Below, piece by piece: positions 3,437 to 62,000 of a stretch of DNA of 64,000 nucleotides. How positions within the stretch are numbered: the stretch's first letter is position 1; every line of letters begins with the position of its first letter. The notes below the pieces were generated by a model, which was given only the letters and a program-made list of their open reading frames with translations, did not search any database and was not told where the DNA came from. The DNA is from a virus. The translations under genes and the position numbers were made by a program. The stretch lies in the UHGV virus genome UHGV-0036853. One strand, given 5' to 3'.

Positions 3437-3553
3437 GTGTTTCTCCTTGTTGTGATTTGGCCGATGGCGCTATGCGCGTTGGGCTTTCGTTCATTCGTGG
3501 CTCTTTCGAGCTGTTAAATGATAGATCAGTACTTACTTATTATCTATCAAAAA

Positions 3554-3985
3554 TCAACGGGGAGTAATAAAGCGTTCAGAGCCTAATCGATCTAACTCAA
3601 CGATGGCCATCTTCGACGCCTGAACGATCATGTCTCGGCGATGCGAAAAGGCGGCGACAGCATGTTTGTATATGTCTGCGATGTGCCGTGCTTCATCCAA
3701 CTTCTGCCGTTTAGACAGATACTGTGGGTTTGTTTTAACCTTAGCGTCCAGTACAGACTCGTTGAACTTAATGCCGTTCATACTCAAGTTCTTACGCTCT
3801 GTGTCGTATAGCTTTGCTTCAACAGCTTCAAGGTTAAGTTTTGCCTCTGCGACACTTCTTTCTGCATGAGCGAGTTTTGAGCCATACTCCATTAAAAGGC
3901 GGGGTTGTCTACGCCAGACTTCCTCCAGATTGTCTCGGTCAAACTCGAGATCAGACATTATTTTCTCGTAAATATCGGTGATCAT
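3554..3985 (-). CDS. hypothetical protein
   Basis: ORF only. Confidence 0.4.
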   Translation of the reverse strand: MITDIYEKIMSDLEFDRDNLEEVWRRQPRLLMEYGSKLAHAERSVAEAKLNLEAVEAKLYDTERKNLSMNGIKFNESVLDAKVKTNPQYLSKRQKLDEARHIADIYKHAVAAFSHRRDMIVQASKMAIVELDRLGSERFITPR

Positions 3986-4361
3986 AGTGATATATCCATA
4001 CTTATTTTTACGTATTAATTATATCAAAGAAAGGAGTGTTATTTTGTTTAGGAGAGAGTTTTATTAGGGTGCAATAGGTCGAATGTTACATGGTTCAGTG
4101 AGTCGTAAACTTTTGCTTCATGGAGTGGTTTTCAACCTGACAATTTTTTTGTTAATATCAATGAGCTACTTGCATTTTGCTCCGATGATGCAACGTTAGT
4201 TATTGAGTACCGCAGGACATGTGGGAATTAACGCCTGTGGAGAGAACGGTCAGATAGGATCACTCATGGAAGCAGGAACTCTTGTTCGTTAGTACATAGA
4301 GAATGTCAATACTGAAATTGATTCGTAACTGCTCTTTTTCTATATAGTTGAGGATATTACG

Positions 4362-4694
4362 GTGAAAAAAGTATTAGGTGCTATTTTTGGTGGTTTGCTT
4401 CTTCTGCCAGTTGTAAGCAATGCAGCGGATGCACAAAAAGCCGTCGACAATAAAAAACCTGTTAACGCTTGGACCTGTGAAGATTTCTTGGCTGTGGACG
4501 AATCTTTCCAGCCTACAGTTGTAGGTTTTGCTGATGCTCTGAACAAGAAAGGCAAACCCGAAGATGCTGTTTTAGATATTCAGGGGGTTGCTACTGTAAC
4601 TCCTGCGGTCATTCAGGCTTGCACTCAGGATAAAAAAGCCAGCTTTAAAGATAAAGTTAAAGCCGAATGGGACAAAATTAAGAAAGATCTATAA
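4362..4694 (+). CDS. hdeA: acid-stress periplasmic chaperone HdeA homologue
   Basis: signal peptide MKKVLG..LLLLPVVSNAADA; near full-length match to the E. coli HdeA sequence as I recall it; GTG start. Confidence 0.85.
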   Translation: MKKVLGAIFGGLLLLPVVSNAADAQKAVDNKKPVNAWTCEDFLAVDESFQPTVVGFADALNKKGKPEDAVLDIQGVATVTPAVIQACTQDKKASFKDKVKAEWDKIKKDL

Positions 4695-4780
4695 TTCATA
4701 GAGTACGTTTTATCGTATTCTTATTGAATATTGAGCGAGTAAATCTCCTGTTAGGATGTTTTTCTTGAATGGGGTGTAAA

Positions 4781-5139: not shown

Positions 5140-8100
5140 CTATGTCTTAATAGTTTCTGCTACGTCGGCTAATATCGCTTCTAGTCGTTCTCCCTCTTCA
5201 GGTCTGAAGTAAAGAATGTTGGGGTTAAACCCGTAAAAGACAGTAACGTCAAGGTCTGGAAGATACTCCTTCCTGCCGACTAAATCGGATGGCTTGTTTT
5301 TGTTGTTAAACATTGCCGTTGCCCGGCTGCCACACGTCAGCACATAGGTCGGACGCACCAGATTGATCTCTTCACGCATAAAGTCGGTGAACTGGCCGAT
5401 CTCGTCTTTGGTGTAGTCCTTTTCTTTGTCTTTCACCTTTTTGCAAACGCCTGTGACATAGAGATCGCCCATGCGCAAATCCCCAGCCGTCAACAGCTTG
5501 GCCTTAAAATCGTCGTATCCGTTTTCCATAAAGTAACCGGTTCGAGCATCATTGCCGTTCGCATTGTCCAGAATGATCATGATTTTCGGCTTAATACCAA
5601 TGCTGGGGCGGATTAGTTCATCACCCAAGCCCATTTCAGCCGCCATCCGTGTCATGAGCACGTTAATCTCAGCCGAACGTTTGGGGTTCATCTCAAACGG
5701 ACGTGAGGCTTTAACTGCATCTATGACAAGGTTTCCCATCAATTCAGCCTGGTCGCGGAGGCGCTCTGGATCAGTTGCTGGCAGACTACCTGGCTCGATG
5801 GATGCAAACGCCCCTACTTTTTGCAGCGATTCGCGCACTCGACTATTACAGGCACGTTTCTCGACAGCTTCTTCGAATTGCGCAAGTGATTCGAATTTGC
5901 CGCCAACCTTTTCTCGCGCTCTCATGATGGCCAGGCAGCCATTCTCAGAACACCCTTTCACAGCAGAGAAGGGCGCATACAGCACCTGGCTACCATCTTC
6001 AAGCGTGCGGATCTCGATTCGGTTAGATGACACGTTAACGTCTGGTGGCAATACGCGAATACCATAGGTCAGCGCATCTTTAACCAGCCCCTGGTGTTTA
6101 TCTTCGCCAAGAATAGTGAGAGCAGCAGCGAAAAACTCTGCGGGATAATGAGTTTTCAACCACATAGATTGATAACTGATTAAGGAGTAAGCAACAGAGT
6201 GTGATTTGTTGAACTGGTAGGCACCATTCTTTTCGAATGCGGTCCAGATCTCCTTCGCTTTCATCTCTGATAGCCCTGGATGTGACGCTGTAACGCGTAC
6301 TGCGTTTATAGGTAGTTTTGCGCCGTACTCAAGTGCCTCTTCGACAGTTTTCAGAGTTCCGTCTTCGCATTTAAAATGTTCCGCACGGTGAATGCGCTGT
6401 GTAGTGCCATCTTCCAGCTCAACGTCTATCCAGCCAGCTTGAGCCTGAACGATGAACTTCTCGCCCATGCTCTTCATTTTTTCCATGTCTTTTTTGCCGA
6501 TCGCTTTACGAACGCCGTCAGCTTCAGCCATTGTGAAGCCAGCAAGCAATCGAGTCGCGTTCATCGTCTGTTCCTGATAGAGAATCACGCCATTTGTTTC
6601 TGCGGTAAGTTCATCAAGAACGGGGTGTAATGATTCCGGCGTCATAAAGCCTTTGGCGACAGAAACATAATCATCCAACATGCCTGACTGAATTGGTCCC
6701 GGCCGGAAGAGCGCAGTCGTAGCAACGACCGTTTTAAAGCTCATTGGCTCAATTCCACCACCTAAATCTTTAAGCAGCTTGCGCATTGGGCCTGATTCAA
6801 GCTGGAAAACACCTTGAGTGTACCCAGCAGCAAAACCATCCAGCACCTTGCGATCTTCAAGAGAAATGGCATCAAGATTGATATCTTCACCTCTGTTCTC
6901 TTTTATGTAGCGTTTTGCACTATCGAGCAAATCGAGAGTTGCTAGGCCAAGCACGTCCAGCTTAATTAGGCCCATAGCCTCGCAGTAACGCTTGTCAAAT
7001 GCGATACAACGCGCGTCACCACGTCGTTCAACCGGTGTACGTTCTGTCAGAGGAACACCTGCTACGATCATCCCTGCCGCATGTCTACCAAAGCCACGCA
7101 TAAGGCTTTGTAACTTGCAGGCTGCATTGAATGCATCAGGGTATTTTGTCGCGTATTTGTCGAGACTTGCCAGTTGTTCGCGCAGCTCCTCCAATGGAAG
7201 GCTATCATCCTCGACGTTCTTCAGTTCTTTTGATACCGCCATATCTGCGGACTCCACACCATAAATACGAGCGGTGTCACGTAGTGCAGAGGCCGCGCCC
7301 AGGTAGGTGAAGTTCGGAATGCCTGCAACGTAATCTTCGCCGTAGCGTTCATTCAGATACTCGATCACCTCATGGCGACGTGCCTGGCTGAAGTCCAAGT
7401 CCGCATCTGGCAAGTCGAGACGCTCAGGGTTGATGAAACGCTCAAACAGAAGACCGTGACGGATTGGGTCGACGTTGGTTATGCCTATGCACCACGCCAC
7501 CAGAGAACCGGCAGAGGAACCACGACCAGGCCCAACGGGAATGCCAGTTTCACGACTATGATTCATCAGATCGCGCACCATCAGGAAGTAACCACAGAAT
7601 CCCAGGCGAGTAAGCGTGTCCATTTCGTACTTTAGCCGCTCAACATAAACCCTGTTCTCAGAAGCTGGTGGTGTGTAGCCAAACTCTTTTGTGGTAAGAC
7701 GTTTACGCAGCCCTGCAACAGCCAGTTTCATCAGCGTTGCAGGTTCGTCGTCTGCCATCTTGGGCAGTGCTGGTGGCAATTCATGCCAGCGCCATGTACA
7801 GGCTTCGATAATGGCGTCCTGCGTTGTTGAGGCCATTGCAGCTGTTACCGGCACATCCATGCGAACGGAGAAGGCTTTAAGCGCCTCAAGGAGATGGCGG
7901 CGACCATTGACGGCGTTATCTCGCTGGTGGGGGATACGCAGACGATGCGGCTGGTCGATTTTGATGTTGTTCGTAACCATGTGCGCAATGTCTTTAATGT
8001 CTGCATCGTCGATCGATTCGTAATAAGCGGGATAAAACGCTACTGGCTCTATTTTCAGTGCGCTGGCGACTTTCATCGCCCGGAAGTTAATCTGGTCGTA

Positions 8101-14956: not shown

Positions 14957-15865
14957 ATGATTGGTAAGTTGTCTGATTCTTTGATTGAAAATAAATACAA
15001 CGAATTTAGAGAAGAAATATCTTTACTTTTTGACTATTTAAATCAGATAAATGATACAACAAAGAAAAATATAAAACGTCTTCTAAAAGAAGTGGAGTAT
15101 GCACAGAATCCAGATACTATTATTAATATTAATGAAACTATTAAGATTAAGTGTGGCACAACGTTAGCTCGCCATTTATGTTCAAACCCATATACAGGTT
15201 CAACATTAGAGATAGGTAACAGCGCCATTGATTTAGAAGAAAAGATAAGATTGTGTAATGTTTTGAAGAATAAACAATATCAGTGGGTTATTACTGAAGC
15301 CTATGAGTTACTGGAAGACTATATTGAGGCAATATATGTCTATACTGTATGTGTTCGAAATGATTTCTGGTCCTCAAGTAATTTTGGTAAGGTTGAAGAT
15401 GATGACATTGGGAAAGGGGAAGTTTATTACAAATTATTAAAAGCAAAAAGTAACCCATCGAAAAAAATAATTAAAATTTTCAGAAATAAAATACCTGGCT
15501 TCAAAGAGATAGAAATAAACAACAAGATTGGTAAAAACTATCGCTTTAACATCAAGCTAATTGAACTACTAAGACATACAATAGTACACAATAGTGGACG
15601 ATTCAATGATACAGAAAAATTTATAAATAAGGTTTTAGATGAATCTGAAATAAACGGTAAGAAAAGAGTTATTGGAGAAAGAGCTGTTAGAAGTTACATT
15701 GCTAAAGTGCAAGAAGATGATATTGTAATGCTCTTAGAAAGACCATCTGAAATTTTTGGTTCTTTTGGTGGTTATTTTAACAGAGCAAAATTTTTACTAA
15801 GTGATATTTTAGAATACTCACTAATCATTAAAGAAGAACTAAAATCATATCTAGGCAATCATTAA
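14957..15865 (+). CDS. AT-rich accessory protein, possible HEPN-type (Abi-like) protein
   Basis: 302 aa, low GC by eye, Rx4H motif RHTIVH, own terminator; functional call is weak. Confidence 0.4.
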   Translation: MIGKLSDSLIENKYNEFREEISLLFDYLNQINDTTKKNIKRLLKEVEYAQNPDTIININETIKIKCGTTLARHLCSNPYTGSTLEIGNSAIDLEEKIRLCNVLKNKQYQWVITEAYELLEDYIEAIYVYTVCVRNDFWSSSNFGKVEDDDIGKGEVYYKLLKAKSNPSKKIIKIFRNKIPGFKEIEINNKIGKNYRFNIKLIELLRHTIVHNSGRFNDTEKFINKVLDESEINGKKRVIGERAVRSYIAKVQEDDIVMLLERPSEIFGSFGGYFNRAKFLLSDILEYSLIIKEELKSYLGNH

Positions 15866-15869
15866 CAAA

Positions 15870-15896
15870 AAAAGGGGCCGAAGCCCCTTTGAATTT
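15870..15896 (+). terminator. intrinsic terminator
   Basis: ggggccgaagcccc hairpin followed by T-rich tract. Confidence 0.7.
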
Positions 15897-16044
15897 TGCG
15901 CTGAAAAAAGTGTTGCTAGGATGTTAGCAAGCTATGGTTAAGAACGTCTGCCGTAATTGTCTATCACAGCGTTGAGCGGTCTGGTTTATGTTAGCGGAGT
16001 CTTAATCTGGGTGATTAAAAGGCCAAACCGCTCAACGCTGTGTC

Positions 16045-16131
16045 TGGCGGAGAGTAATGGAATCGAACCATCATCGCTTGCGCAATGGGACGGTTTTCAA
16101 GACCGCTTGAGCACCATGCTCCCTACTCTCC
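16045..16131 (-). tRNA. tRNA-Ser (anticodon UGA), long variable arm
   Basis: cloverleaf by hand: acceptor GGAGAGT/ACTCTCC, anticodon loop CTTGAAA, T-loop GGTTCGATTCC, encoded CCA. Confidence 0.7.
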
Positions 16132-16799
16132 GGCCGTTGTGGTGGCCGGTACTGAATCTCCGGCATACGGTGCAGCCAATTAGGACTACGGACGATCACC
16201 GCTCGCGAAAGGGAAGATTTGCGGCCGCATTTCCCTAACATCCAAGAAAGCTATCGCATCAGTCTGCGAATCCACCACAACGGAAAGAGCATTCACGTCT
16301 CGCGTGCCACCACGAATGGCAACTCAGAGAGTCGAACTCTGAAAATGCTCTTACCTGTTGTGTGCTGTGTCACTCCCTCCGCTATTACCTGGCTTTGCCT
16401 CGACCTTTTAGGTTGCGTCCGATGATAAACAGGGCTGTCGGAAATTTGTCTGTGACACAGCGATAAGAGAACTCGATGCATTTAAGCCAAGCCCCATATG
16501 GGAAGTTCTCTTATCTGTTGTGCGCTCCGTTTCGTGGAGCTAACGGCGGGTGAACAGGCCGCACCAGGTTGGACATATTTCAGCGTTATGCTGTTGCAAG
16601 AGAGCCAAATTGTGATGGTCGGTGCTGAACTCCGACACAGGGTTGTAGCAAGCCCCGCAAAGCGCGCACTACTGTAGTTGCGGCACATCAGCCTGTGCAT
16701 TCACCACAATGTTGAGAACACTGGTTGTCACGCTGCAACGCAACATTTATTCATAGATTGGGATATGACCCCGTTACGCCAATGTTCTCAATATTATGT

Positions 16800-16875
16800 T
16801 GGTGCCGGTTAACGGACTTGAACCGCTGACCATTCGCTTACAAAGCGACTGCTCTACCAACTGAGCTAAACCGGC
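16800..16875 (-). tRNA. tRNA-Thr (anticodon UGU)
   Basis: acceptor GCCGGTT/AACCGGC, D-arm TAGCTCAGTTGGTAGAGCA, anticodon loop TTTGTAA, T-loop GGTTCAAGTCC, CCA. Confidence 0.75.
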
Positions 16876-16879
16876 AATT

Positions 16880-16966
16880 TGGTGGGGAGTGATGGAGTCG
16901 AACCACCCGAGTCGCAATGACAGTAGATTTACAGTCTACCCCGCTACCCCTACGGACTAACTCCCC
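16880..16966 (-). tRNA. tRNA-Tyr (anticodon GUA), long variable arm
   Basis: acceptor GGGGAGT/ACTCCCC, anticodon arm GTAGA-CTGTAAA-TCTAC, T-loop GGTTCGACTCC, CCA. Confidence 0.7.
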
Positions 16967-16971
16967 TAAAT

Positions 16972-17046
16972 TGGCGATGGTGGGTGGATTCGAACCACCG
17001 ACCAGTTGGTTAACAGCCAACTGCTCTACCGCTGAGCTACACCATC
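16972..17046 (-). tRNA. tRNA-Asn (anticodon GUU)
   Basis: acceptor GATGGTG/CACCATC, anticodon arm GTTGG-CTGTTAA-CCAAC, T-loop GGTTCGAATCC, CCA. Confidence 0.7.
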
Positions 17047-51420: not shown

Positions 51421-52980
51421 ATGACTGTTCGGATTGTATCTAACGCAGTAAATGCGCTTATTTCTGGCGCAGATGACAAGGTAAAGCAACTGGTGCAGCA
51501 AATGTTGAGCTACGAAGTCGAGACTGGCGACTGGAAGGGCACAAGCACGATGTTCAACTGGAGTAAAAACTCGTTCCCTGCTGGCTTTGCCAAGCCTGTA
51601 GCGGCGAACTTGAACAAGGCGGGCATCAAATGTGTTCATATCCGCAAAGACAAAGCCCCGGCGCTTGGTAAACCAAATCCGGCGGTTAACCCATTCCCAT
51701 ACAATCCTGATTATGCGTATCAGGATCAGACTGTGGAAACACTGGTTCGAGAGGGAATGATGATTGCGCAGATCGCTACTGGTGGCGGGAAATCTAACGT
51801 TGCCTGCAAAGCAGCTGCACGTATCGGTCGAATGACATTATTTTTAACAACCCGCTCTGTTCTGATGTTTCAAATGGCCGAAAACTTCCAGAGATCCATC
51901 GACTACCGCGCCGAAAATGGCGAACCGTGGTTAAAAGACCAAAAGGTTGGAGTCATTGGCTCGGGTGAGTTCCAGGTATCACGACATATCAACGTCGCTA
52001 CAGTTCAAACTCTTGCAAGTTTCCTCGAAGAACCACCACGCGATGCAACACCAGATAAGAAAAGCTACCACCTCAAACGTCGGGAGTTGGTGAAACGCTT
52101 CCTTTCAAGTGTCTCTCTTCTTATTCTGGAAGAGGCGCATGAGTCTTCAGGCTCAAATTTCTATGACATCGCCAGATTATGTGTGAACGCAGACTATCGT
52201 CTGGCGCTTACAGCCACGCCGTTCATGAAGGATTCGACGGAAGCCAACATGCGCCTGATGGCGGTGGCCGGGCGAATTGAAATTAAAGTCACAGAAAAGT
52301 ACCTGATTGATCGAGGCATTCTGGCAAAGCCGTACTTCCTTTATCATAAAGTTGCCTACAAGCCAGACGAGGCCAGAATCAAGGCCGAACTTGCCAACAA
52401 ACACCTAAATTTTAGAGTAGGTATGAGCACTGCCTACCAAAAGGCTTATCAGCTGGGCATCGTGTATAATTTGGGACGTAACGAGGCCATAGTACGAGAT
52501 GCATTGCTCTATAAGCAACATTCTCTCAATTGTATGACTCTGGTTCGTCTTAAACGCCACGGGCAAATCCTGATGGAAATGATGAAAGAGTCCGGCCTTA
52601 GAGTTGACTTCATCTATGGGGAATCTAACCAGGCCACAAGGCAAGCAAAGCTGAACAGTTTAGCGTCTGGAGAAATAGATGTTTTAATAGGCTCGACTAT
52701 TCTGGATGTCGGTGTTGATGTGCCAAGCGTTGGCGCGGTCATTCTTGCTGGTGGTGGGAAAGCAGAAGTTGAAATGAGGCAGCGTGTCGGTCGTGGCTTA
52801 CGAGCCAAGAAGAATCAGGCAAACGTATGTTTTATCACTGATTTTATTGACATTAGCAACAAATATCTGTTGTCTCACTCTTATGAGCGAAAACACATCA
52901 TCGACACCACACCTGGCTTTGCAGAAGGTGTATTGCCTATTGATGGCGCATTCGATTTTGGAGTTCTGAAACGAGATTAG
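51421..52980 (+). CDS. SF2 (DEAD/DEAH-like) helicase
   Basis: Walker A ATGGGKS, motif II LILEEAH, C-terminal helicase domain. Confidence 0.75.
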   Translation: MTVRIVSNAVNALISGADDKVKQLVQQMLSYEVETGDWKGTSTMFNWSKNSFPAGFAKPVAANLNKAGIKCVHIRKDKAPALGKPNPAVNPFPYNPDYAYQDQTVETLVREGMMIAQIATGGGKSNVACKAAARIGRMTLFLTTRSVLMFQMAENFQRSIDYRAENGEPWLKDQKVGVIGSGEFQVSRHINVATVQTLASFLEEPPRDATPDKKSYHLKRRELVKRFLSSVSLLILEEAHESSGSNFYDIARLCVNADYRLALTATPFMKDSTEANMRLMAVAGRIEIKVTEKYLIDRGILAKPYFLYHKVAYKPDEARIKAELANKHLNFRVGMSTAYQKAYQLGIVYNLGRNEAIVRDALLYKQHSLNCMTLVRLKRHGQILMEMMKESGLRVDFIYGESNQATRQAKLNSLASGEIDVLIGSTILDVGVDVPSVGAVILAGGGKAEVEMRQRVGRGLRAKKNQANVCFITDFIDISNKYLLSHSYERKHIIDTTPGFAEGVLPIDGAFDFGVLKRD

Positions 52981-52982
52981 TT

Positions 52983-53261
52983 ATGAGCGAAAAGAAAACA
53001 ACTTATTGTCAGGTGGCATTGTCTGATAAGGCCAATGACAAACTTGGAAAGTTTCAAATGAAACTAAAAGAAAAAAACATCAAAATGTCTAAGGCTGAAG
53101 TTATCAATACCATCCTAGAGGCGATGACGATGGCTGAGTTTGATAAAGTTTCCTCTGCCGTTGGAGTCTCTGCTAAGGCTCGTGAGAAAATCATGCGCAT
53201 CTATGAAAACTCTAATATGACAAAGGAAGACCTAGAACAAATTCTAAGCAAACTGCCATAA
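52983..53261 (+). CDS. small hypothetical protein coupled to helicase gene
   Basis: ORF. Confidence 0.4.
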   Translation: MSEKKTTYCQVALSDKANDKLGKFQMKLKEKNIKMSKAEVINTILEAMTMAEFDKVSSAVGVSAKAREKIMRIYENSNMTKEDLEQILSKLP

Positions 53262-53515
53262 CATTTCGCATTCCCTCCATCCGCCAATTCCAAGATGTGC
53301 TTACTTGTAAAAGGAGCACATCAATTGATGCGGCCTAGAGAATGAATTTAATCAAGACAAACATTGAATGATTAATAGACTACGATAGTGTCCAACAGGG
53401 CATTCTCATGTGACATTTGTCACATTTTTAACCGCATAAGTCTCCGGCTGAAAAAAGTTCTTGATTGGCTGAATGATATTTGTAGGCTTATCAATGTTTA
53501 TAGCCGGAGGTGTGA

Positions 53516-54058
53516 ATGGGTGTACTTGACATTGATAGTAATTACTTAAGTGCAAGGCGAATAAAGGAATGTGTTCATATCTATTGTAAATCAAAGCAGT
53601 CTTGTTTAGAAAAGCAGGCGTACCTAACATCTTCTCAAAAAGGAGAGCACAAACTCATCAAATATAAACTAAAGGCTTCGCGCAAAGATCGTTATGAGCA
53701 CTATATATACGTAAAGGATATTGAAGGTACCAAGACAAATTGCGGTATTATCTTTTATCCCTATGATATATCAAGACTGTTCTCCATTATGAAATCCTGT
53801 GTCGGCGTAGCTCCAGGTAAATTAGAGTTGCATTCAAACTTATACGATTACCCAAATGCTCAAAAACTGATAAACGATAGCACTTCGTCCTATGGATTTT
53901 CGTTTCTCTTTAAGAATCATCTCGCATTGAAAGATTTCATCGAAAAATACAATGAAGGAATAATATCAGGCGAATTAAATTTCAACAAAATCTGCGGAGA
54001 TATAAAAAGGGACGACCTCTTAATAGATATTTACAACAGAACCCAAGTTAACGTGTAA
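53516..54058 (+). CDS. hypothetical protein (AT-rich island)
   Basis: ORF, low GC. Confidence 0.45.
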   Translation: MGVLDIDSNYLSARRIKECVHIYCKSKQSCLEKQAYLTSSQKGEHKLIKYKLKASRKDRYEHYIYVKDIEGTKTNCGIIFYPYDISRLFSIMKSCVGVAPGKLELHSNLYDYPNAQKLINDSTSSYGFSFLFKNHLALKDFIEKYNEGIISGELNFNKICGDIKRDDLLIDIYNRTQVNV

Positions 54059-54085
54059 CCATCCATTAATCATAGCCAGACAAAT

Positions 54086-54505
54086 ATGAAAGTAACAAAC
54101 CTAATTATTTTAACACTAGCCACATCACTAATTGGGTGTTCATCTTCATCTATATCTGTTTCAAAGGCAAAGTATGCACCTCAAAGCAGAATATTTAAAT
54201 ATCAAACACCACATGAGTCTAGTCTAACAATAGTTAGAGACAAAGGGCTGGTTGGTTCTGGATGTAACGCTTCCATATTCATCAATGGAGAAACGGCAGC
54301 AAAATTGGAACCTGGTGAAAAAGCAACTTTCTATCTTAATGAAGGAGATTGGATCGTTGGGACATCAATTGAAAGTTCAGGTCTTTGCGCATTTAACCCC
54401 TCTAGGATGGAGCGAGAAATAAAACTAAAGCAAGGCGACGCGAAAACATATCGGGTTTTCACTACCTGGGATGGTACAATGGATATATTGCCAACCACTT
54501 TATAA
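54086..54505 (+). CDS. lipoprotein (AT-rich island)
   Basis: lipobox LIGC. Confidence 0.5.
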   Translation: MKVTNLIILTLATSLIGCSSSSISVSKAKYAPQSRIFKYQTPHESSLTIVRDKGLVGSGCNASIFINGETAAKLEPGEKATFYLNEGDWIVGTSIESSGLCAFNPSRMEREIKLKQGDAKTYRVFTTWDGTMDILPTTL

Positions 54506-54509
54506 TGAT

Positions 54510-55034
54510 ATGACGACGAAAGACATCACCTACGGTGTGCCAGCAGAAGTCTGGCCTCGAGATTACACTAACGTTGAAAAACTACTGATGTTCTGGCGCA
54601 GAGAACAAATTCCTGTAAGGGCCACTCTCGAAGATGGTCAGGCGTTTTGCATGTACGTTTATGGCCTCATGCCATCTCGTAACAAAGTTGACCTTTGCCC
54701 AGCCCCTTTTGACAAAGAAAATCGTATAAGGCTCCCAATTGAACGCATTAGTACAATTGAATCAGGTGTGGTTGACAGTATCGCTCACGATTTCAAAGGT
54801 CGACTAACAGTTCACCCTGATTATGTCGATAATCGGCCATCACGCCGCGATTTTTTTGCAATTTGCAACCAAGCCTACAAAGCAAACAAATCTATAAGGG
54901 TGTACATGGCGGATGGCCGTGAAATTGAGGGGGTGTCAGCAGGCGCAGATGCTTGTCAGGTTACACTACGTGTCGAGAACGGTAGAAAAATAGTTGTTTT
55001 GTTCGATTGGGTTGAACGAATTTTGCCTTTTTGA
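54510..55034 (+). CDS. hypothetical protein (AT-rich island)
   Basis: ORF; start moved to ATG after upstream stop. Confidence 0.45.
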   Translation: MTTKDITYGVPAEVWPRDYTNVEKLLMFWRREQIPVRATLEDGQAFCMYVYGLMPSRNKVDLCPAPFDKENRIRLPIERISTIESGVVDSIAHDFKGRLTVHPDYVDNRPSRRDFFAICNQAYKANKSIRVYMADGREIEGVSAGADACQVTLRVENGRKIVVLFDWVERILPF

Positions 55035-55037
55035 GTT

Positions 55038-55346
55038 ATGAAATCGATATTGTTACCACCATTATTTTTACTTTGCTCAGTTGCGGCAAATGCAATGGAC
55101 TATAAGCCTGTCATTCAGTCGCTGATGAATGACGTGTGCTCAACGTCTCAGAATGTATCAGTTTGCATGTATCAATTTTCGGCAGCCGTAAAAGCAGGAA
55201 AAGCGATAGGTGAGAATGTGGAACTGTGTAAGAAAGTGGCAAATGAAGAACGAGCAATGTTGGATTGCGAATCTAGCGAGTCATCGGCACAGTTCGTTGA
55301 TGCGCTATTTGACACCAATCGTAAGGCTGTAGAGTCTGTCCAATAA
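55038..55346 (+). CDS. small secreted Cys-containing protein
   Basis: signal peptide ending ANA. Confidence 0.5.
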   Translation: MKSILLPPLFLLCSVAANAMDYKPVIQSLMNDVCSTSQNVSVCMYQFSAAVKAGKAIGENVELCKKVANEERAMLDCESSESSAQFVDALFDTNRKAVESVQ

Positions 55347-55536
55347 ATCTATAAGGTTAATAACCGGCTAAGTCCGGTTATTATTTTTCACATCACTTCT
55401 TTATATCTATAAATCAAATAATCTAAATATATATAAGGTCGAAAGCCGTAATCGATTATTTATTTAGGGAACACCTTCGACGATCTCGCTTTTATTTCTA
55501 GGACTTTCATCCCTGCAAAAAATTTTAAAAAAACAC

Positions 55537-55564
55537 TTGCAATCTTTTTTCGCGTATCGATAAT
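55537..55564 (+). promoter_or_regulatory. sigma70-like promoter for 55630 gene
   Basis: TTGCAA, 16-bp spacer, GATAAT; strong RBS AAGGA before ATG. Confidence 0.5.
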
Positions 55565-55629
55565 TGAACTCGTCGAAAGCGAAGACGCTAACGACAATAA
55601 ATTTTAAATTTACATAAGGAAAAATTATC

Positions 55630-56280
55630 ATGGCTAACATTATCATTTCTAAAAAATCCATCATTGAAGCTGCTTCCATTGTATCCGATGAACTGCGCGA
55701 AAAAGCAGATCTGGCAACTCAAACATATAACGAACATTATAAAAATGGTACGCACACTAAAGCAGACAAAGCAAATATGCAAGCTGCGACCACTAAACTT
55801 GCTTACTTCATCAACAACGTCGTAAACGCAGTAGAAGACGAAAAATTATGCTCTGTTTTCTACTATGCGATTAAAGCAAGCAAACAAGCGCCAGAAGTAT
55901 TTTTCCGTGATGCAATGACTAATAGTTATTCACTGGAAAAACTGGTTTATCTGGTTAAATCCATTAAAGCTGGTAAATGCGTTTATTCCGTCGCTGATAT
56001 GTCAGGATCTCGTGTATTCGCTTTAATCGATATGATTAACGACGAGATCGACACGTTCACTAATGGCGCTGTTTTCGATTTAATGAATGAAGCTAAAAAA
56101 GCGTGCGAAATTAAATTGGACGCTGGCTATACTCAAGCCAACCAGTTGATCAATCTTTGCGAACGTCTCGGACTTGTTGAGAAAGTCAAAGGAGCTGGGA
56201 GCGCAAAAGCTGGTACTCAGCAATATCGCTTCATTAAAAATGATTTCTACAATTATTTAGCTGATGCTTTCAAAGCGTAA
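55630..56280 (+). CDS. hypothetical protein with own strong promoter
   Basis: 216-aa ORF. Confidence 0.55.
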   Translation: MANIIISKKSIIEAASIVSDELREKADLATQTYNEHYKNGTHTKADKANMQAATTKLAYFINNVVNAVEDEKLCSVFYYAIKASKQAPEVFFRDAMTNSYSLEKLVYLVKSIKAGKCVYSVADMSGSRVFALIDMINDEIDTFTNGAVFDLMNEAKKACEIKLDAGYTQANQLINLCERLGLVEKVKGAGSAKAGTQQYRFIKNDFYNYLADAFKA

Positions 56281-56292
56281 TTAATGGAATCA

Positions 56293-56311
56293 AGCGCCCA
56301 CTATGGGCGCT
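56293..56311 (+). terminator. hairpin, copy 1 of two identical ones
   Basis: agcgcccactatgggcgct. Confidence 0.5.
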
Positions 56312-56328
56312 TTAAAGGAGCTTTAAAA

Positions 56329-56532
56329 ATGGTCAGCTATGACAAGATCCGCGCAGAATATCGCGCAAAGTATCGCGCTTATAAACTGGAATTAATCGAT
56401 GATTTGATCGCGCAACGCGACCAATTAAATTTTACGTTTTCTGATTTGCTTAACAGCAAGCGAGATTGCAAGCGCAAACGTGAATACTTACGTTTAAGCA
56501 CATTAATCGGAAAACTTCAAAATTCTATTTAA
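56329..56532 (+). CDS. small hypothetical protein
   Basis: start after AAAGGAG. Confidence 0.45.
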   Translation: MVSYDKIRAEYRAKYRAYKLELIDDLIAQRDQLNFTFSDLLNSKRDCKRKREYLRLSTLIGKLQNSI

Positions 56533-56553
56533 TTTTTTTTAAGGAGCTTAATC

Positions 56554-56784
56554 ATGTTTGTTCTTATCGCTGGCGTTAACGTCCATAATGAATATTATGT
56601 TAATCGCATCGCTGGGATCGCTGGTTACGCTGGGCGCTCAGTCGAGCTTATAGATGAAACGACGCGCAAAATTGACTTATTGAGCGACCAGGAGCGAAAA
56701 AAAGCAGACGTGAACGACGCTGATATATTTTTAATGTTAAAAGCGTTTGTAGAAATGGGATTTGAAATCAGTTTACATAAATAA
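56554..56784 (+). CDS. small hypothetical protein
   Basis: RBS AAGGAG. Confidence 0.45.
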   Translation: MFVLIAGVNVHNEYYVNRIAGIAGYAGRSVELIDETTRKIDLLSDQERKKADVNDADIFLMLKAFVEMGFEISLHK

Positions 56785-56788
56785 AATC

Positions 56789-56815
56789 GAGCGCCCACTA
56801 TGGGCGCTTTTTTCG
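56789..56815 (+). terminator. intrinsic terminator, copy 2 of identical hairpin
   Basis: agcgcccactatgggcgct followed by TTTTTT. Confidence 0.65.
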
Positions 56816-57400
56816 TTTCCAATACTTCCACCATAACGCGCCATCATTGGCGCGTTTTTTATTGTCTTTGACTCACTCCAACAACATAAAAATAAGCGCC
56901 AAAATAACGCCATAGACGCGCTTTTATATCCTTGCCAGTACATACCCATTACTTAACGCATTAACGCGCTTAAAACGCGTTATATTGCGCTATAACGTAT
57001 GGCTAATCATTAATTTTTATTCTTGCTATGTGATCCGCGTTTATTTGTCGGCGCGGATCGGCATTTTGTGTTGTTCTGTGTCCGCTCGCGTATTATGTGC
57101 GCGTGATTTTTCACATAATCACACCACTTAATCACGTATGTGATTACGCTACGAAAGAAATCTGGATGTCTCAGGCGACGAAAGTCATCATGATTTTCCC
57201 CGCTCGCCTGTCCGACAACCGCTGGTTGGATTCCACCAGCTTCCCGATGTTTTTTCTACATAAAGGCGAATGCAGCCGTTTCCCGAAAAAATCCTGGCCG
57301 TTTCCCGTCGGCTCATGAATACGTTCCTCGCCGTTTCTGAAAATTTCCCTGCGGCAGCTGGTGGCTATAGAGAAAGGGCCGTTTCTGGCCCTCTTCTCAG

Positions 57401-57883
57401 TTACACGCCATCAAGGATGTGGATGCGGTTGCTTGTGTATACATTCAACATAAAGTTAGCGCAAAACAGTTTCCATGTATCAACGCCAGCGGTATACGTA
57501 ATGTTTTTGCATTTAATTGCATTGTTGGCGATCCGCATCCCCTGCGATACTGCTTCATCGTCGGAAAATTTGAACGACGATTGAGTTTTAATCCAGACAG
57601 AAATCTGCGTAGCGAACTCAATCAGCTTGGACTGGCAGAATCGCCCGGAGCGCACCGGAAAGACGAACGTTCCGAATCCAGAATTTACCACATACGCTTT
57701 CTCAAATACCCGCGAGTAACGACGATTGCCAATGATGTCGCGTGCAATAATGCATTTTTCTTGTGCTGACAGTTCTACCGTCTCATTGTCGCGCCATGCA
57801 CCAAGTACTCGTTTTTCAATGTCAGAGAACGTTACAGCGATATTGCCATGTGCGGGTGCGTTTACAGTAGCGATAAAATTCAT
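57401..57883 (-). CDS. hypothetical protein
   Basis: ORF with conserved upstream motif. Confidence 0.5.
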   Translation of the reverse strand: MNFIATVNAPAHGNIAVTFSDIEKRVLGAWRDNETVELSAQEKCIIARDIIGNRRYSRVFEKAYVVNSGFGTFVFPVRSGRFCQSKLIEFATQISVWIKTQSSFKFSDDEAVSQGMRIANNAIKCKNITYTAGVDTWKLFCANFMLNVYTSNRIHILDGV

Positions 57884-57900
57884 GATTAATTCCTTATAGT

Positions 57901-57950
57901 AAATAACAAATTGTTTTCTTGTTGGTGTTAATTATCGTTGTACGAATAAG
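57901..57950 (-). promoter_or_regulatory. motif family 2 copy
   Basis: aaataacaaattgttttcttgttggtgttaattatcg. Confidence 0.5.
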
Positions 57951-58087
57951 GCGTCAAAGTGGAAAGTTGCGGTAGCCGGACGGGAACAGGTGGGTTTGTC
58001 GGTTGCCTGGAGGTAAGAGGTTGGTGTTTTTAGCCTGCGGGAAACAGGATGGTCATTTAAGGCCACCAGCATTGGTGACCTTATTCT

Positions 58088-58369
58088 TCAGTGGAGCAGA
58101 CCGATGTCGATGGTATCCCCTGAATCATCCACACGGATCATCAGCATGGCGAAGGCGTTTAGTGGATAGCTTGCGTGCCATTCAGGGAAGCGGTCATCTC
58201 GCATGAAGTCGGCAATGTCGTAAACGATGCCCTCAAAGTGAAAGAATCTCGTGCTTACCTGCTCGTCATATTCCACATGATCCATTTCTTGCTGTTCTGT
58301 TTCCGGCAAGTCCAGCCATGATTCGAGTAATACATTTTGTGCTTTGGTGGTAATGGTGAAATCAGTCAT
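58088..58369 (-). CDS. small acidic protein
   Basis: start moved to ATG 58369 behind AGGA; the track N-terminus would overlap the upstream motif. Confidence 0.45.
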   Translation of the reverse strand: MTDFTITTKAQNVLLESWLDLPETEQQEMDHVEYDEQVSTRFFHFEGIVYDIADFMRDDRFPEWHASYPLNAFAMLMIRVDDSGDTIDIGLLH

Positions 58370-58388
58370 GAGCATATCCTCACTGCGT

Positions 58389-58440
58389 AAACATGTTGTT
58401 TTCTTGTTGGTGTAATTATCGCAGTGTAGATAAGGCATAA
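58389..58440 (-). promoter_or_regulatory. motif family 2 copy
   Basis: aaacatgttgttttcttgttggtgtaattatcg. Confidence 0.5.
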
Positions 58441-58704
58441 AAGAAGTTAATACAGGCTGAATACACAAGAAAGGTTCTCGAAGTTGATAGCCAGGTTTCA
58501 AACTAACCTTCGGTTATTAAAAGTCATTTAAGACCACCAATGCTGGTGGCCTTAATAATTATCGCCCGATTACGCTAAGGATCTTTTCCTCAACTGATTT
58601 GTTGTTGCGACTAAACTGCCTTGCGTATCTAATGACAGAAGAGGCGTTTCGCTTTCTGACCATTTCGGCTCTTTCCTTCAGGCGTTTCTTGAAATCGCCC
58701 ATAT

Positions 58705-60699: not shown

Positions 60700-62000
60700 C
60701 CCGAAAACCTACTGAAATCGATTGTGACCCGCTGGCTGTCTGGCACAATTACGCTGTAGCTGGGCATTCAGAGGGAATCCAGCGGTAAGTAAGTCCGCCT
60801 GCACGTGAGCGTCTCTCTCCTTCCCGCACATTACAGGTGGGCAGCCGCAACTCTCCCTCACGCTATACCGGTACGCCACCGTTCCTGAACCGGCATCGAA
60901 CCTTTTCCCGAAATCCACACAGGCAACTCGACCGTTTCCCTGAAAACCTCCAGCCGTTCCCCGAAGGCAACCCAGCCGTTTCTGTAGCGGGATGCAGCCT
61001 TTTCCCTGTATGGACCGAAGGCTGACCGTAGGGGTGTTACGGGGGATAAAATCAGGAGTTGAATAAATACGAAAAAGGAGGCGACACCCCTCCTTCCCTC
61101 CCCACTTATACATACCTGGCTTCTTCGCTATACATGTTGTGTTTTATTCGTGTTTTATCTGTCTCAACCTCTCTATAGGCGTTAATGCTCACTCCTTCCA
61201 GAGCGTTCTATACGGCGACTATTCCTGTTGGTGAATTGGGTGTGTTGTTCTCTCTGTCGGTGTAAATGGTTTCGTTCGTTTTGCGGTGGTTCTTCTGTGG
61301 GGGTGTTCTCGTCGTTTTGGTGATTGTTCTTCTCCGTGTATGGAGTAATGGCAGGTGGGCGATTCCTTTCGTTATTGTGTTTGAGTTGTTTGTCTGGAGT
61401 GCGTGAAGGGCTTTTGTAGTTATTCGTGTATTGGGTAATGGCGTTTCCCGTGATTGTTATGTTTCGTGTCTTTTGGGATTGAGAGAATCCTTGCGGTTAC
61501 AGGCTTCGTTGGGTTTTCAGTGATTCTGGTGTTCTTCGCTGTTTGGGGAATGGCGTGTCGTGGGTATCGCGCGTGTGAATGTTTTCGGATTGCCTGTGAA
61601 AGTTAGGTTGGTTGTCCGGTAGCCTGGGAAGAAGAGGTGGGTCTTTTCGGTGGCCTGCCATAAAGAGGTTGGTTGTTTTTGGGAATGGCATGTGTGTTAT
61701 TTAGTTGTTTTGTTATGCCTGAAAATAAGTTGTTTATATGGTTGTGTAACGCAACGGGAGCGATTTTGAGCGTGTGTTTTTGTTGGTAGTGTGTTGAGTT
61801 GTCTGTGGTGAAAATTGGACGCTGTGGAGCTGTCTGCTGCGTAGGATTACGGGTATAAGAAGTGATGTGTGAAAACGTCAATTTTTTAGACCAAATCGGG
61901 TGAAAGCGTTGACGTTTCGTTGATCTGTTATTCAGTTGTTTTCTTGTTTGTATAAACAACTATAACCTATTGATATTTAAGGATGTGATTGCAGGCATGG
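60700..62000. other. ~1.3-kb gene-poor, strongly G+T-skewed (plus strand) region with spaced short repeats
   Basis: TTCCCnGAAA-like repeats at 60.70-61.0 kb; four spaced GGGnAATGGC-like repeats at about 61336, 61427, 61540 and 61681. Confidence 0.5.

Follow-up and report, generated by a model that had tools for sequence, protein, structure and literature searches.

An FljA-family gene and its neighbours in the plus-strand arm of an SSU5-type phage-plasmid

Genes and transcription units of the plus-strand arm

We analysed positions 53262–56820 of the virus genome UHGV-0036853, represented by one strand of 64,000 nucleotides (nt; hereafter the window). The seven plus-strand open reading frames (ORFs) that an earlier note on this DNA had listed here, g1 to g7, are all present. 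The region appears to comprise two independent transcription units, unit A (g1–g4) and unit B (g5–g7), rather than one island, and we assign g3, the third gene of unit A, to the family of the Salmonella flagellin repressor FljA. On balance, we favour an account in which unit A is a conversion operon centred on this FljA-family gene and unit B a backbone operon headed by g5.

The window can be assigned to the SSU5-type phage-plasmids because of its identity to pEA11_2, its relatedness to SSU5 and the gene content of its span. A 3.6-kb query covering the region matched the Escherichia albertii plasmid pEA11_2 over its full length at 99.0% identity and several Escherichia coli plasmids of ~110 kb at 98%, with partial matches to Salmonella phage SSU5 and to E. 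coli phages Cyrano, PhiR41_1 and CMS-2020a. Over the window span, the annotation of pEA11_2 lists dnaE, primase, a DnaB-like helicase, ligase, integrase, tail, capsid, portal and terminase genes on the minus strand, followed by two ParB-like genes. The coding strand switches at ~51.4 kb to a short plus-strand arm (51421–56861) that carries a DEAD-box helicase gene, a 92-amino-acid (aa) ORF (orf92) and then g1–g7; minus-strand genes resume from ~57.4 kb.

The low GC content noted previously was borne out: GC is 0.388 at 53262–56820 and 0.463 in the rest of the window, and the region is essentially the lowest-GC 3.5-kb stretch of the window, with just 0.7% of sliding windows equally low. Rare codons make up 11–14% in g1 and g2 (11% in g1), 8.6% in g3 and 1.4% in g5, and codon usage sets unit A apart from unit B. 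Unit A (53408–55388) consists of a promoter cassette, g1, g2, g3, g4 and an intrinsic terminator, with intergenic gaps of 27 nt (g1–g2), 4 nt (g2–g3) and 3 nt (g3–g4). Its terminator (55358–55388, plus strand) begins 12 nt after the g4 stop codon with the hairpin TAATAACCGGCTAAGTCCGGTTATTA (55358–55383), continues with TTTTT (−12.6 kcal/mol, z −4.5) and is conserved in relatives. Approximately 150 nt beyond it lies the conserved promoter of g5, which opens unit B (55537–56861), followed by g5, a first hairpin, g6, g7, a second hairpin and a second terminator. Because the conserved terminator (55358–55383) and the conserved promoter (55537–55564) separate g4 from g5, we read the region as two units.

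The first gene of unit A, g1 (53516–54058, plus strand; GC 0.348), encodes a 180-aa cytoplasmic protein and carries the only strong Shine-Dalgarno sequence of the unit (GGAGG). It is a rare and variable gene: it matched phrog_31250 and nothing in Pfam, NCBIfam or PADLOC, it occurs in 25 PLSDB plasmids, and tblastn searches gave no match in phage genomes. Upstream of it lies the perfect palindrome ATGTGACATTTGTCACAT (53408–53425), exact and single-copy in the window, as first reported. Its core, TGTGA-N6-TCACA at 53409–53424, is expected 0.06 times by chance and appeared in 6 of 100 shuffled sequences. Set against the consensus of the regulator CRP, AAATGTGATCTAGATCACATTT, the palindrome matches all 10 core positions and the 3′ TTT flank, with 15 of 22 positions matching overall. 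The half-sites are kept in pEA11_2, PhiR41_1, Cyrano and the related sequence L011, with a varying 6-nt spacer (CATTTG, CATTCA, CATTCG, TTTATA), and pAMPD1 has one mismatch. A 48-nt promoter-like block, CTCCGGCTGAAAAAAGTTCTTGATTGGCTGAATGATATTTGTAGGCTT (53442–53489, plus strand), always accompanies the palindrome upstream of the variable first gene; the alignment shows it almost invariant across five elements with diverging flanks, and it is present in Cyrano too. We tentatively place its −35 and −10 elements at TTGATT...TAGGCT, or take GATATT (53475–53480) as the −10. The centre of the palindrome is 100 nt upstream of the g1 start codon, and the candidate −10 elements would put a CRP-type site near −70 or −78, the former with GATATT.

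The block is followed by a first gene with a strong ribosome-binding site (RBS) that differs between elements. In the window this gene is g1; PhiR41_1 has a relative with 23% identity, L011 a gene for 196 aa and Cyrano an ORF of 32 aa. SSU5, pMT1, Buttiauxella and Klebsiella pJN2-26 lack the cassette; there the lipoprotein and FljA-like genes directly follow orf92 or have other upstream regions. In SSU5, pJN2-26, Cyrano, pMT1 and Buttiauxella, the FljA-like gene has no CRP-type site upstream, and the cassette therefore belongs to the g1-type insert, not to FljA-like genes generally. We read it as a candidate CRP-dependent promoter that arrived with such an insert. Just upstream, at 53350–53375 (plus strand), is the 3′ remnant (...TTGAATGATTAA) of a gene for 188 aa, otherwise deleted here; PhiR41_1, pAMPD1, Cyrano and L011 have it in full. 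Allowing up to one mismatch, we found none of the 14-mers of the two promoter regions a second time in the window, and so no shared operator.

Alternatively, the palindrome could act as a weak intrinsic terminator for the gene before it or as an operator for an element-encoded regulator, and we consider this a substantial, though minority, possibility. It folds as a 7-bp RNA hairpin (−8.1 kcal/mol, z −3.5) followed by TTTTT, a T-run conserved in most relatives, and thereby differs from the CRP-activated promoters of lac and malT, with which it shares the 10 core positions and the 3′ TTT. In PhiR41_1, L011 and Cyrano, which have the preceding gene in full, the palindrome follows the stop codon of that gene by 34 nt and could equally be its weak terminator; the A-to-G change in pAMPD1 retains a G-U pair yet breaks the TCACA half-site. 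However, the stem has just three G-C pairs and the terminator scan made no call there, whereas the match at all 10 CRP core positions around a spacer that is free to change is the pattern expected of a protein reading two half-sites. The palindrome also always travels with the downstream promoter block, and the window lacks the second copy that one might expect of a phage-repressor operator. The operator label originally given to the palindrome thus fits less well than a CRP-type site or a weak terminator. With a CRP site, expression of unit A would probably be tied to cyclic AMP–CRP through the palindrome. Since flhDC is itself activated by CRP, such control would co-induce the FljA homologue with the flagellar regulon of the host.

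The FljA-family protein g3

The g3 gene (54510–55034, plus strand) has a conserved start and encodes 174 aa; a 187-aa reading from 54471 was rejected, as homologues do not support that start. No product of the region had been thought to match a recognised family. On the contrary, g3 scores 279.8 bits against Pfam PF03614 (Flag1_repress, 'Repressor of phase-1 flagellin'; cut-off 24, E 9.9e-84), its residues 5–171 aligning to positions 1–170 of the 170-position profile. It also aligns with P0182 at 35% identity over 171 aa (E 1e-36); P0182 represents a cluster of 1141 members named 'phase 1 flagellin gene repressor FljA [Salmonella enterica]'. The two proteins are similar in length (174 and 179 aa) and share an N-terminal, a central and a C-terminal motif, DI(T/S)YG..AE.WPRDY, PS.RD(F/Y)F.IC and FDWV.RI. 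From this end-to-end similarity we assign g3 to the FljA family as a full-length member. FljA and the plasmid-borne FljA-z66 act post-transcriptionally, by blocking translation of fliC mRNA (PMC2652032; bioRxiv 10.1101/2025.10.27.684867). Like g3, FljA-z66 (pBSSB1) is encoded on an extrachromosomal element.

The structural model of g3 predicts two tandem Hfq/Sm-like domains, with an N-terminal helix and a bent five-stranded sheet that superposes on Hfq. Hfq and LSm proteins have one such unit per subunit, whereas g3 would have two in one chain. Similarity to the Pfam Hfq profile (PF17209) stays below its cut-off of 27, at 16.8 bits (E 0.005) for g3 and 19.6 bits for a homologue. No significant internal repeat was found in the g3 sequence (hhalign probability 1.7%), and the tandem arrangement is therefore a prediction of the model. 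Searches of PDB sequences with the g3 and g5 profiles gave no match. The predicted fold fits the RNA-binding, post-transcriptional mode of action of FljA.

A profile search of 1.84 billion representative proteins recovered 29 family members, with about six full-length clusters among them. Several of these clusters are found on phage-plasmid-sized contigs or are context-less, and only the Salmonella FljA cluster reaches contigs of chromosome size; a contig scan with FljA-clade patterns returned phage-plasmid copies only and no chromosomal fljA. Among PLSDB plasmids, tblastn found g3 in 835, full-length in 826, with Klebsiella (345), Escherichia (229), Enterobacter (92), Yersinia (62) and Salmonella (60) as hosts. 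The Yersinia carriers include pMT1 of Yersinia pestis CO92, and the Salmonella ones plasmids of ~106.7 kb, the size of pHCM2. Pairwise ratios of nonsynonymous to synonymous substitution rates (dN/dS) of 0.06–0.27, which include pairs with unsaturated dS that involve Y. pestis and pairs that involve a Klebsiella copy, indicate purifying selection.

Genes of the g3 type are already annotated as 'repressor of phase 1 flagellin' in the SSU5 and pHCM2 records. Our literature search found no paper tying fljA to SSU5, pHCM2 or phage-plasmids, and no functional study of a g3-type gene. The SSU5 gene, SSU5_121 (148 aa, 4325–4771 of locus L002), lacks the conserved N-terminus MTNITDITYG...; a 175-aa reading begins at position 4244 of that locus, and the annotated start is apparently wrong.

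The surroundings of g3 differ from those of FljA. All characterised fljA genes share a transcript with an alternative flagellin gene, whereas g3 has no adjacent fljB, fljB-z66, invertase gene or invertible promoter; its neighbours are g2, for the lipoprotein, and g4, for the secreted protein. Neither a flagellin nor an invertase gene lies next to g3 or its counterpart in pEA11_2 (the equivalent of the window), SSU5, pJN2-26, Cyrano or pC714_2, and the only annotated recombinase gene is a site-specific integrase ~47 kb from g3. The locus is thus not a flagellar phase-variation module of the fljBA/hin type. In the divergent Klebsiella element pC714_2 the gene order is helicase, small ORF, FljA-like gene, a gene for a 100-aa protein and a g5-like gene; by tblastn, the FljA-like gene (3495–4031 of locus L017) occupies the same slot, with 35% identity to g3. 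Phage-plasmid-sized Klebsiella contigs carry a separate clade of 166 aa (P0199, with 23% identity to g3; P0197 and P0202 were also noted).

We then examined expression of close homologues in published RNA sequencing data from E. coli LF82 carrying Cyrano (PMC9928086, S1 Table), taking the columns, in log2 values, as overnight culture in lysogeny broth (LB) and, each at 1 h and 6 h, bacteria in culture medium and bacteria associated with macrophages. The g3 counterpart, CYRAN_114 (78% identity), reaches 4.2 in LB and 7.0–8.1 in the other conditions: the FljA-like gene of Cyrano is expressed in the lysogen and inducible.

We propose that unit A is a lysogenic-conversion operon, g1-g2-g3-g4, with its own conserved promoter cassette and with g3 as its functional centre. 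The most likely role of the unit is lysogenic conversion with post-transcriptional silencing of flagellin; having no partner flagellin gene, g3 would switch off flagellin in a motile host without supplying a replacement.

Several observations weigh against this account, in addition to the possible terminator function of the palindrome. The Shine-Dalgarno sequences of g2, g3 and g4 are weak or absent. The identity of g3 to FljA is just 35%, and flagellin mRNA is only its presumed target. The expression data were obtained with a related element, Cyrano, in which the sequence preceding the FljA-like gene is not the same as in the window, and for unit B the fold match of g5 reaches only the general winged-helix class. 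Finally, 345 Klebsiella and 62 Y. pestis plasmids carry an intact g3 that evolves under purifying selection. Klebsiella pneumoniae and Y. pestis are non-flagellated, and conservation of g3 in such hosts suggests either frequent host switching or an mRNA target other than flagellin, which may also be just one of several targets.

The second of these options would make g3 an element-intrinsic, Sm-like RNA-binding regulator of a phage-plasmid mRNA or a non-flagellar host mRNA, with Salmonella FljA as a specialised or domesticated offshoot of this mobile-element family. We regard this as a tentative proposal, distinctly less probable than flagellin silencing. In its favour, Klebsiella is the largest host group of full-length homologues (345 of 826), a further 62 are in Y. 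pestis, and the low dN/dS values include pairs that involve Klebsiella and Y. pestis. The g3-type gene is always found in the same slot beside backbone genes and never beside a flagellin gene, the family is tiny, with several of its full-length clusters on phage-plasmid-sized contigs, and its divergent members, the 166-aa clade and the pC714_2 gene, are on Klebsiella elements. However, the experimentally characterised family members all repress fliC (PMC2652032; bioRxiv 10.1101/2025.10.27.684867), and the conserved motifs of g3 are those it has in common with FljA. Moreover, many of the host genera are motile, elements may move between hosts, and we identified no candidate target in the element itself.

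SSU5-like phage-plasmids rank with the most frequent extrachromosomal elements of clinical Enterobacterales; they include pHCM2 of Salmonella Typhi, pMT1 of Y. pestis and hundreds of plasmids in Klebsiella, E. coli and Enterobacter. If g3 silences flagellin, their carriage would alter the motility of the host, how sensitive it is to flagellotropic phages and how innate immunity recognises its flagellin, under catabolite control. If it acts on another RNA, a family known only from flagellar phase variation would acquire a new role, and if FljA has its origin in mobile elements, this small family would gain a fold, an origin and a second function. The region is otherwise ordinary; what is moderately surprising is to find an FljA-family, predicted Sm-like protein as a core gene of elements that reside largely in non-flagellated hosts.

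Envelope-targeted products and the island hypothesis

The lipoprotein and the signal-peptide protein announced by the earlier note were both recovered, as g2 and g4, here by rule-based reading of their N-termini. The 139-aa lipoprotein g2 (54086–54505, plus strand; phrog_890, 'lipoprotein') has the lipobox LIG/C at residues 15–18, with MKVTNLIILTLATSLIG before the cysteine, conforming to the [LVI][ASTVI][GAS]C rule, and Ser at +2. The lipobox cysteine is invariant in homologues, which have two further conserved cysteines. SSU5 and pMT1 carry homologues, as do temperate phages of Vibrio and Pseudomonas, and in the lambdoid phages mEp390 and HK639 they sit within the tail operons; g2 is present in 415 plasmids, about half of the group, and is a moron-type inserted gene in the lambdoid tail operons too. 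The 102-aa secreted protein g4 (55038–55346, plus strand) has the signal peptide MKSILLPPLFLLCSVAANA, read as MK-SILLPPLFLLCSVA-ANA/M with n, h and c regions, an AXA motif and a maximal hydropathy of 2.12 at residue 3, and four conserved cysteines in its mature part. In Klebsiella pJN2-26 and pAMPD1, the proteins encoded behind the FljA-like gene are 24–26% identical to g4 and likewise have a signal peptide and four cysteines. In pEA11_2, the 83-aa PGAP call of the g4 homologue (5834–6085 of locus L001) cuts off the signal peptide, and its start is apparently mis-annotated. We propose that g2, as an outer-membrane-type lipoprotein, and g4, as a periplasmic four-cysteine protein, would modify the envelope.

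Unit A resembles phage morons, conversion genes with autonomous expression in the lysogen (lambda bor and lom, HK97-type inserts), in its lower GC, its differing codon usage and its own promoter-like cassette and terminator, and, as with morons, the g3 homologue of Cyrano is transcribed in the lysogen and g2 homologues are inserted in the mEp390 and HK639 tail operons. Unlike morons, it shows the behaviour of a sporadic insert in g1 and the promoter cassette only, with g3 universal in the group and g2 in about half. As a temperate-phage-carried lipoprotein with an outer-membrane-type sorting signal, g2 is also comparable to the exclusion lipoproteins Llp of T5 and Cor of phi80, N15 and HK022. 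No sequence or profile similarity of g2 to these was detected, and at ~121 aa mature g2 is roughly twice their size.

The region had first been interpreted as an accessory island with superinfection-exclusion or host-modifying functions. One recently acquired island whose envelope-targeted products mediate exclusion or host modification now appears improbable. The low GC, the rare codons of g1 and g2, the presence of a lipoprotein and a secreted protein, the insertion positions of g2 relatives in other temperate phages and the varying gene content between orf92 and g5 among relatives are all in keeping with it. Yet a terminator and a promoter divide the region, just g2 and g4 among the seven products are directed to the envelope, the g5 homologue stays silent in a lysogen, and g3 and g5, found in ~820 plasmids and in conserved order even in the divergent pC714_2, are backbone genes rather than recent cargo. 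The exclusion role also found no homology to lean on. PADLOC at E up to 1 gave no match among eight proteins of the region or among the alternative cargo genes of relatives; Pfam and PHROGs assigned none of the region's proteins to an exclusion family, and neither tied them to defence; NCBIfam gave no match; Rfam on 52500–58500 returned nothing above noise; and the variable cargo genes of PhiR41_1 and L011 had no Pfam match. The island description therefore holds for g1 and the promoter cassette (25 plasmids) and partly for g2 (415), and fails for g3 (835) and g5 (815). Of the envelope and host-modification claim, the targeting of two products stands, and host modification is plausible through the FljA-family g3, with g2 relatives in lambdoid tail operons; exclusion by g2 or g4 is possible, without support, and the region gives no evidence of a new defence or exclusion system. 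We conclude that the region is a mosaic of backbone genes (g3, g5) and inserted genes (the g1 cassette, g2, g6, g7) in a well-sampled phage-plasmid family.

Unit B, its terminators and flanking features

The 216-aa protein g5 (55630–56280, plus strand) is encoded behind an AAGGA RBS by a backbone gene of SSU5-like phage-plasmids, found in 815 plasmids and at least 80% identical across genera. Fold prediction and searches describe an N-terminal helical hairpin of 60 residues and a C-terminal winged helix. Neither Pfam nor PDB sequences gave a match, a BFVD fold search had none at E < 0.001, and the resemblance to MarR/ArsR-type regulators is limited to the general winged-helix class, with no sequence-level membership and a helical hairpin foreign to those families. 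We regard g5 as a highly conserved, putative winged-helix DNA-binding protein.

The promoter of unit B, TTGCAA-16-GATAAT (55537–55564, plus strand), was previously called a near-consensus sigma-70 promoter with a strong RBS. The site and the RBS are there, and both hexamers are invariant in six aligned relatives from E. coli, Salmonella and Klebsiella; the site has only 9 of 12 matches, and our scan showed no excess of such sites over shuffled sequence (11 found, 11.9 expected). Upstream of it, at 55427–55510 (plus strand), the non-coding blocks ATATATAAGG, ATTTATTTAGGGAACACCTTCGA and TTTTATTTCTAGGACTTTCAT have invariant columns in elements of E. coli, Salmonella and Klebsiella and are candidate regulator-binding sites.

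In the Cyrano lysogen, the g5 counterpart CYRAN_113 (98% identity) is at the detection floor in LB (2.3–2.8) and at 2.8–3.9 in the other conditions, rising to ~5.5 at 6 h in macrophages; the g7 counterpart CYRAN_112 (92% identity) is at the floor in LB (2.3) and at 3.0–4.9 otherwise. The g5 operon of Cyrano is thus essentially off despite an identical promoter, which contradicts the idea of g5 as lysogeny-expressed cargo. Most likely g5 is kept silent in the lysogen and would act as an early or induced regulator of the element. A role as prophage master repressor was rejected, given the silence of the homologue and the presence of another putative repressor, CYRAN_45. That g5–g7 are constitutively and highly expressed in the prophage, for example for maintenance or immunity, is very unlikely: promoter and RBS are conserved, rare codons few and the protein extremely conserved, but CYRAN_113, under the same −35/−10, and CYRAN_112 stay at the floor in LB with only the modest rise in macrophages, and the putative master repressor of Cyrano is not the g5 homologue.

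The two identical hairpins reported to bracket the last small genes, AGCGCCCACTATGGGCGCT, are exact at 56293–56311 and 56790–56808, with 0.00 expected by chance; each copy folds at −15.5 kcal/mol. Copy 1 (56293–56311, plus strand) stands right after the g5 stop codon, in all relatives and with an invariant stem, and is followed by TTTAAAGGAG, which holds three U only and the RBS of g6. Because it has no full U-tract, we read it as a leaky terminator or a 3′ stabiliser. Copy 2 (56790–56814, plus strand) continues into TTTTTT and forms a complete intrinsic terminator (−15.5 kcal/mol, z −4.4), with a second in tandem at 56835–56861 (plus strand; AACGCGCCATCATTGGCGCGTT at 56835–56856, then TTTT; −15.7 kcal/mol, z −5.75). 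The flank of the right-hand hairpin, TTTTTTCGTTTC, is conserved in 13 relatives. The hairpin loop is CTA in most elements and TAG in copy 1 of PhiR41_1 and pJN2-26, with an identical stem, which looks like inversion or template-switch turnover within the palindrome.

Comparison of hairpin spacing over 13 loci bears on the origin of this duplication. Buttiauxella has one copy, with its own U-tract, directly after g5. Two copies are separated by 45 nt with no gene between them in Klebsiella pC714_2, by 247 nt with g6 between them in SSU5, pJN2-26 and Kluyvera, by 271–274 nt with g7 between them in Cyrano, pAMPD1 and L011, by 307 nt in Y. pestis pMT1, and by 496–497 nt with g6 and g7 between them in the window, pEA11_2, p108 and PhiR41_1; the left-hand copy adjoins the RBS of the cassette. 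Because this series explains the duplication, we interpret g6 and g7 as small cassettes inserted into the g5 terminator with duplication of its hairpin, and the bracketing hairpins, rightly noticed, as copies of that terminator. The upstream copy having lost its U-tract, transcription could read through into g6 and g7, and copy 2 with the second terminator would end unit B. The first cassette gene, g6 (56329–56532, plus strand; phrog_6145), encodes a 67-aa basic helical protein and is missing from Cyrano, pAMPD1 and L011. Its inherited annotation, 'MIT family metal ion transporter / CorA' (SSU5_119, phrog_6145), is untenable for a basic 67-aa protein with no hydrophobic segment (maximal 15-residue hydropathy 0.32). 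The second, g7 (56554–56784, plus strand; phrog_1585), encodes 76 aa and is absent in SSU5, Klebsiella pJN2-26 and Kluyvera.

At the other end of the plus-strand arm, the DEAD-box helicase gene (51421–52980, plus strand) lies upstream of orf92 and is translationally coupled to it. The small basic protein encoded by orf92 (52983–53261, plus strand; GC 0.38) lies just outside the g1–g7 stretch; it matches phrog_1466 and, weakly, the 'transcriptional repressor' family phrog_4268 (E 5e-4). Its counterpart CYRAN_117 (89% identity) is transcribed 12-fold above the element background in the LF82 lysogen in LB and stays high throughout, being among the most strongly transcribed Cyrano genes in lysogeny. 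orf92 could be a regulator of the plus-strand arm.

Beyond unit B, a non-coding stretch of ~540 nt (56862–57400) separates convergent genes. It contains terminator-like hairpins at 57031–57060 and 57087–57103 and AATCAC/GTGATT inverted repeats at 57103–57145, and a cluster of TAACGC/AACGCG motifs at 56834–56980 holds 4 of the 22 TAACGC copies of the window. Distant relatives retain both ends of this stretch at 75–80% conservation and vary in its middle. A DNA-binding protein may act on it, for instance at an origin, a partition site or an operator.

Elsewhere in the window, four tRNA genes (Ser-TGA, Thr-TGT, Tyr-GTA and Asn-GTT) cluster on the minus strand at 16045–17046, adjoining the lowest-GC kilobase (15001–16000, GC 0.314). 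A sharp excursion of strand composition, unique within the window, occupies 61001–62000 (GC skew +0.32, AT skew −0.35). In public records, enterobacterial SSU5-like sequences are filed under Gram-positive bacteria as the metagenome-assembled genomes (MAGs) 'Bacillota bacterium' (L011) and 'Candidatus Fimivivens' (L012), and the same holds for the proteins P0077 (Gemella morbillorum) and P0171 (Finegoldia magna); these labels are most likely artefacts of binning or contamination.

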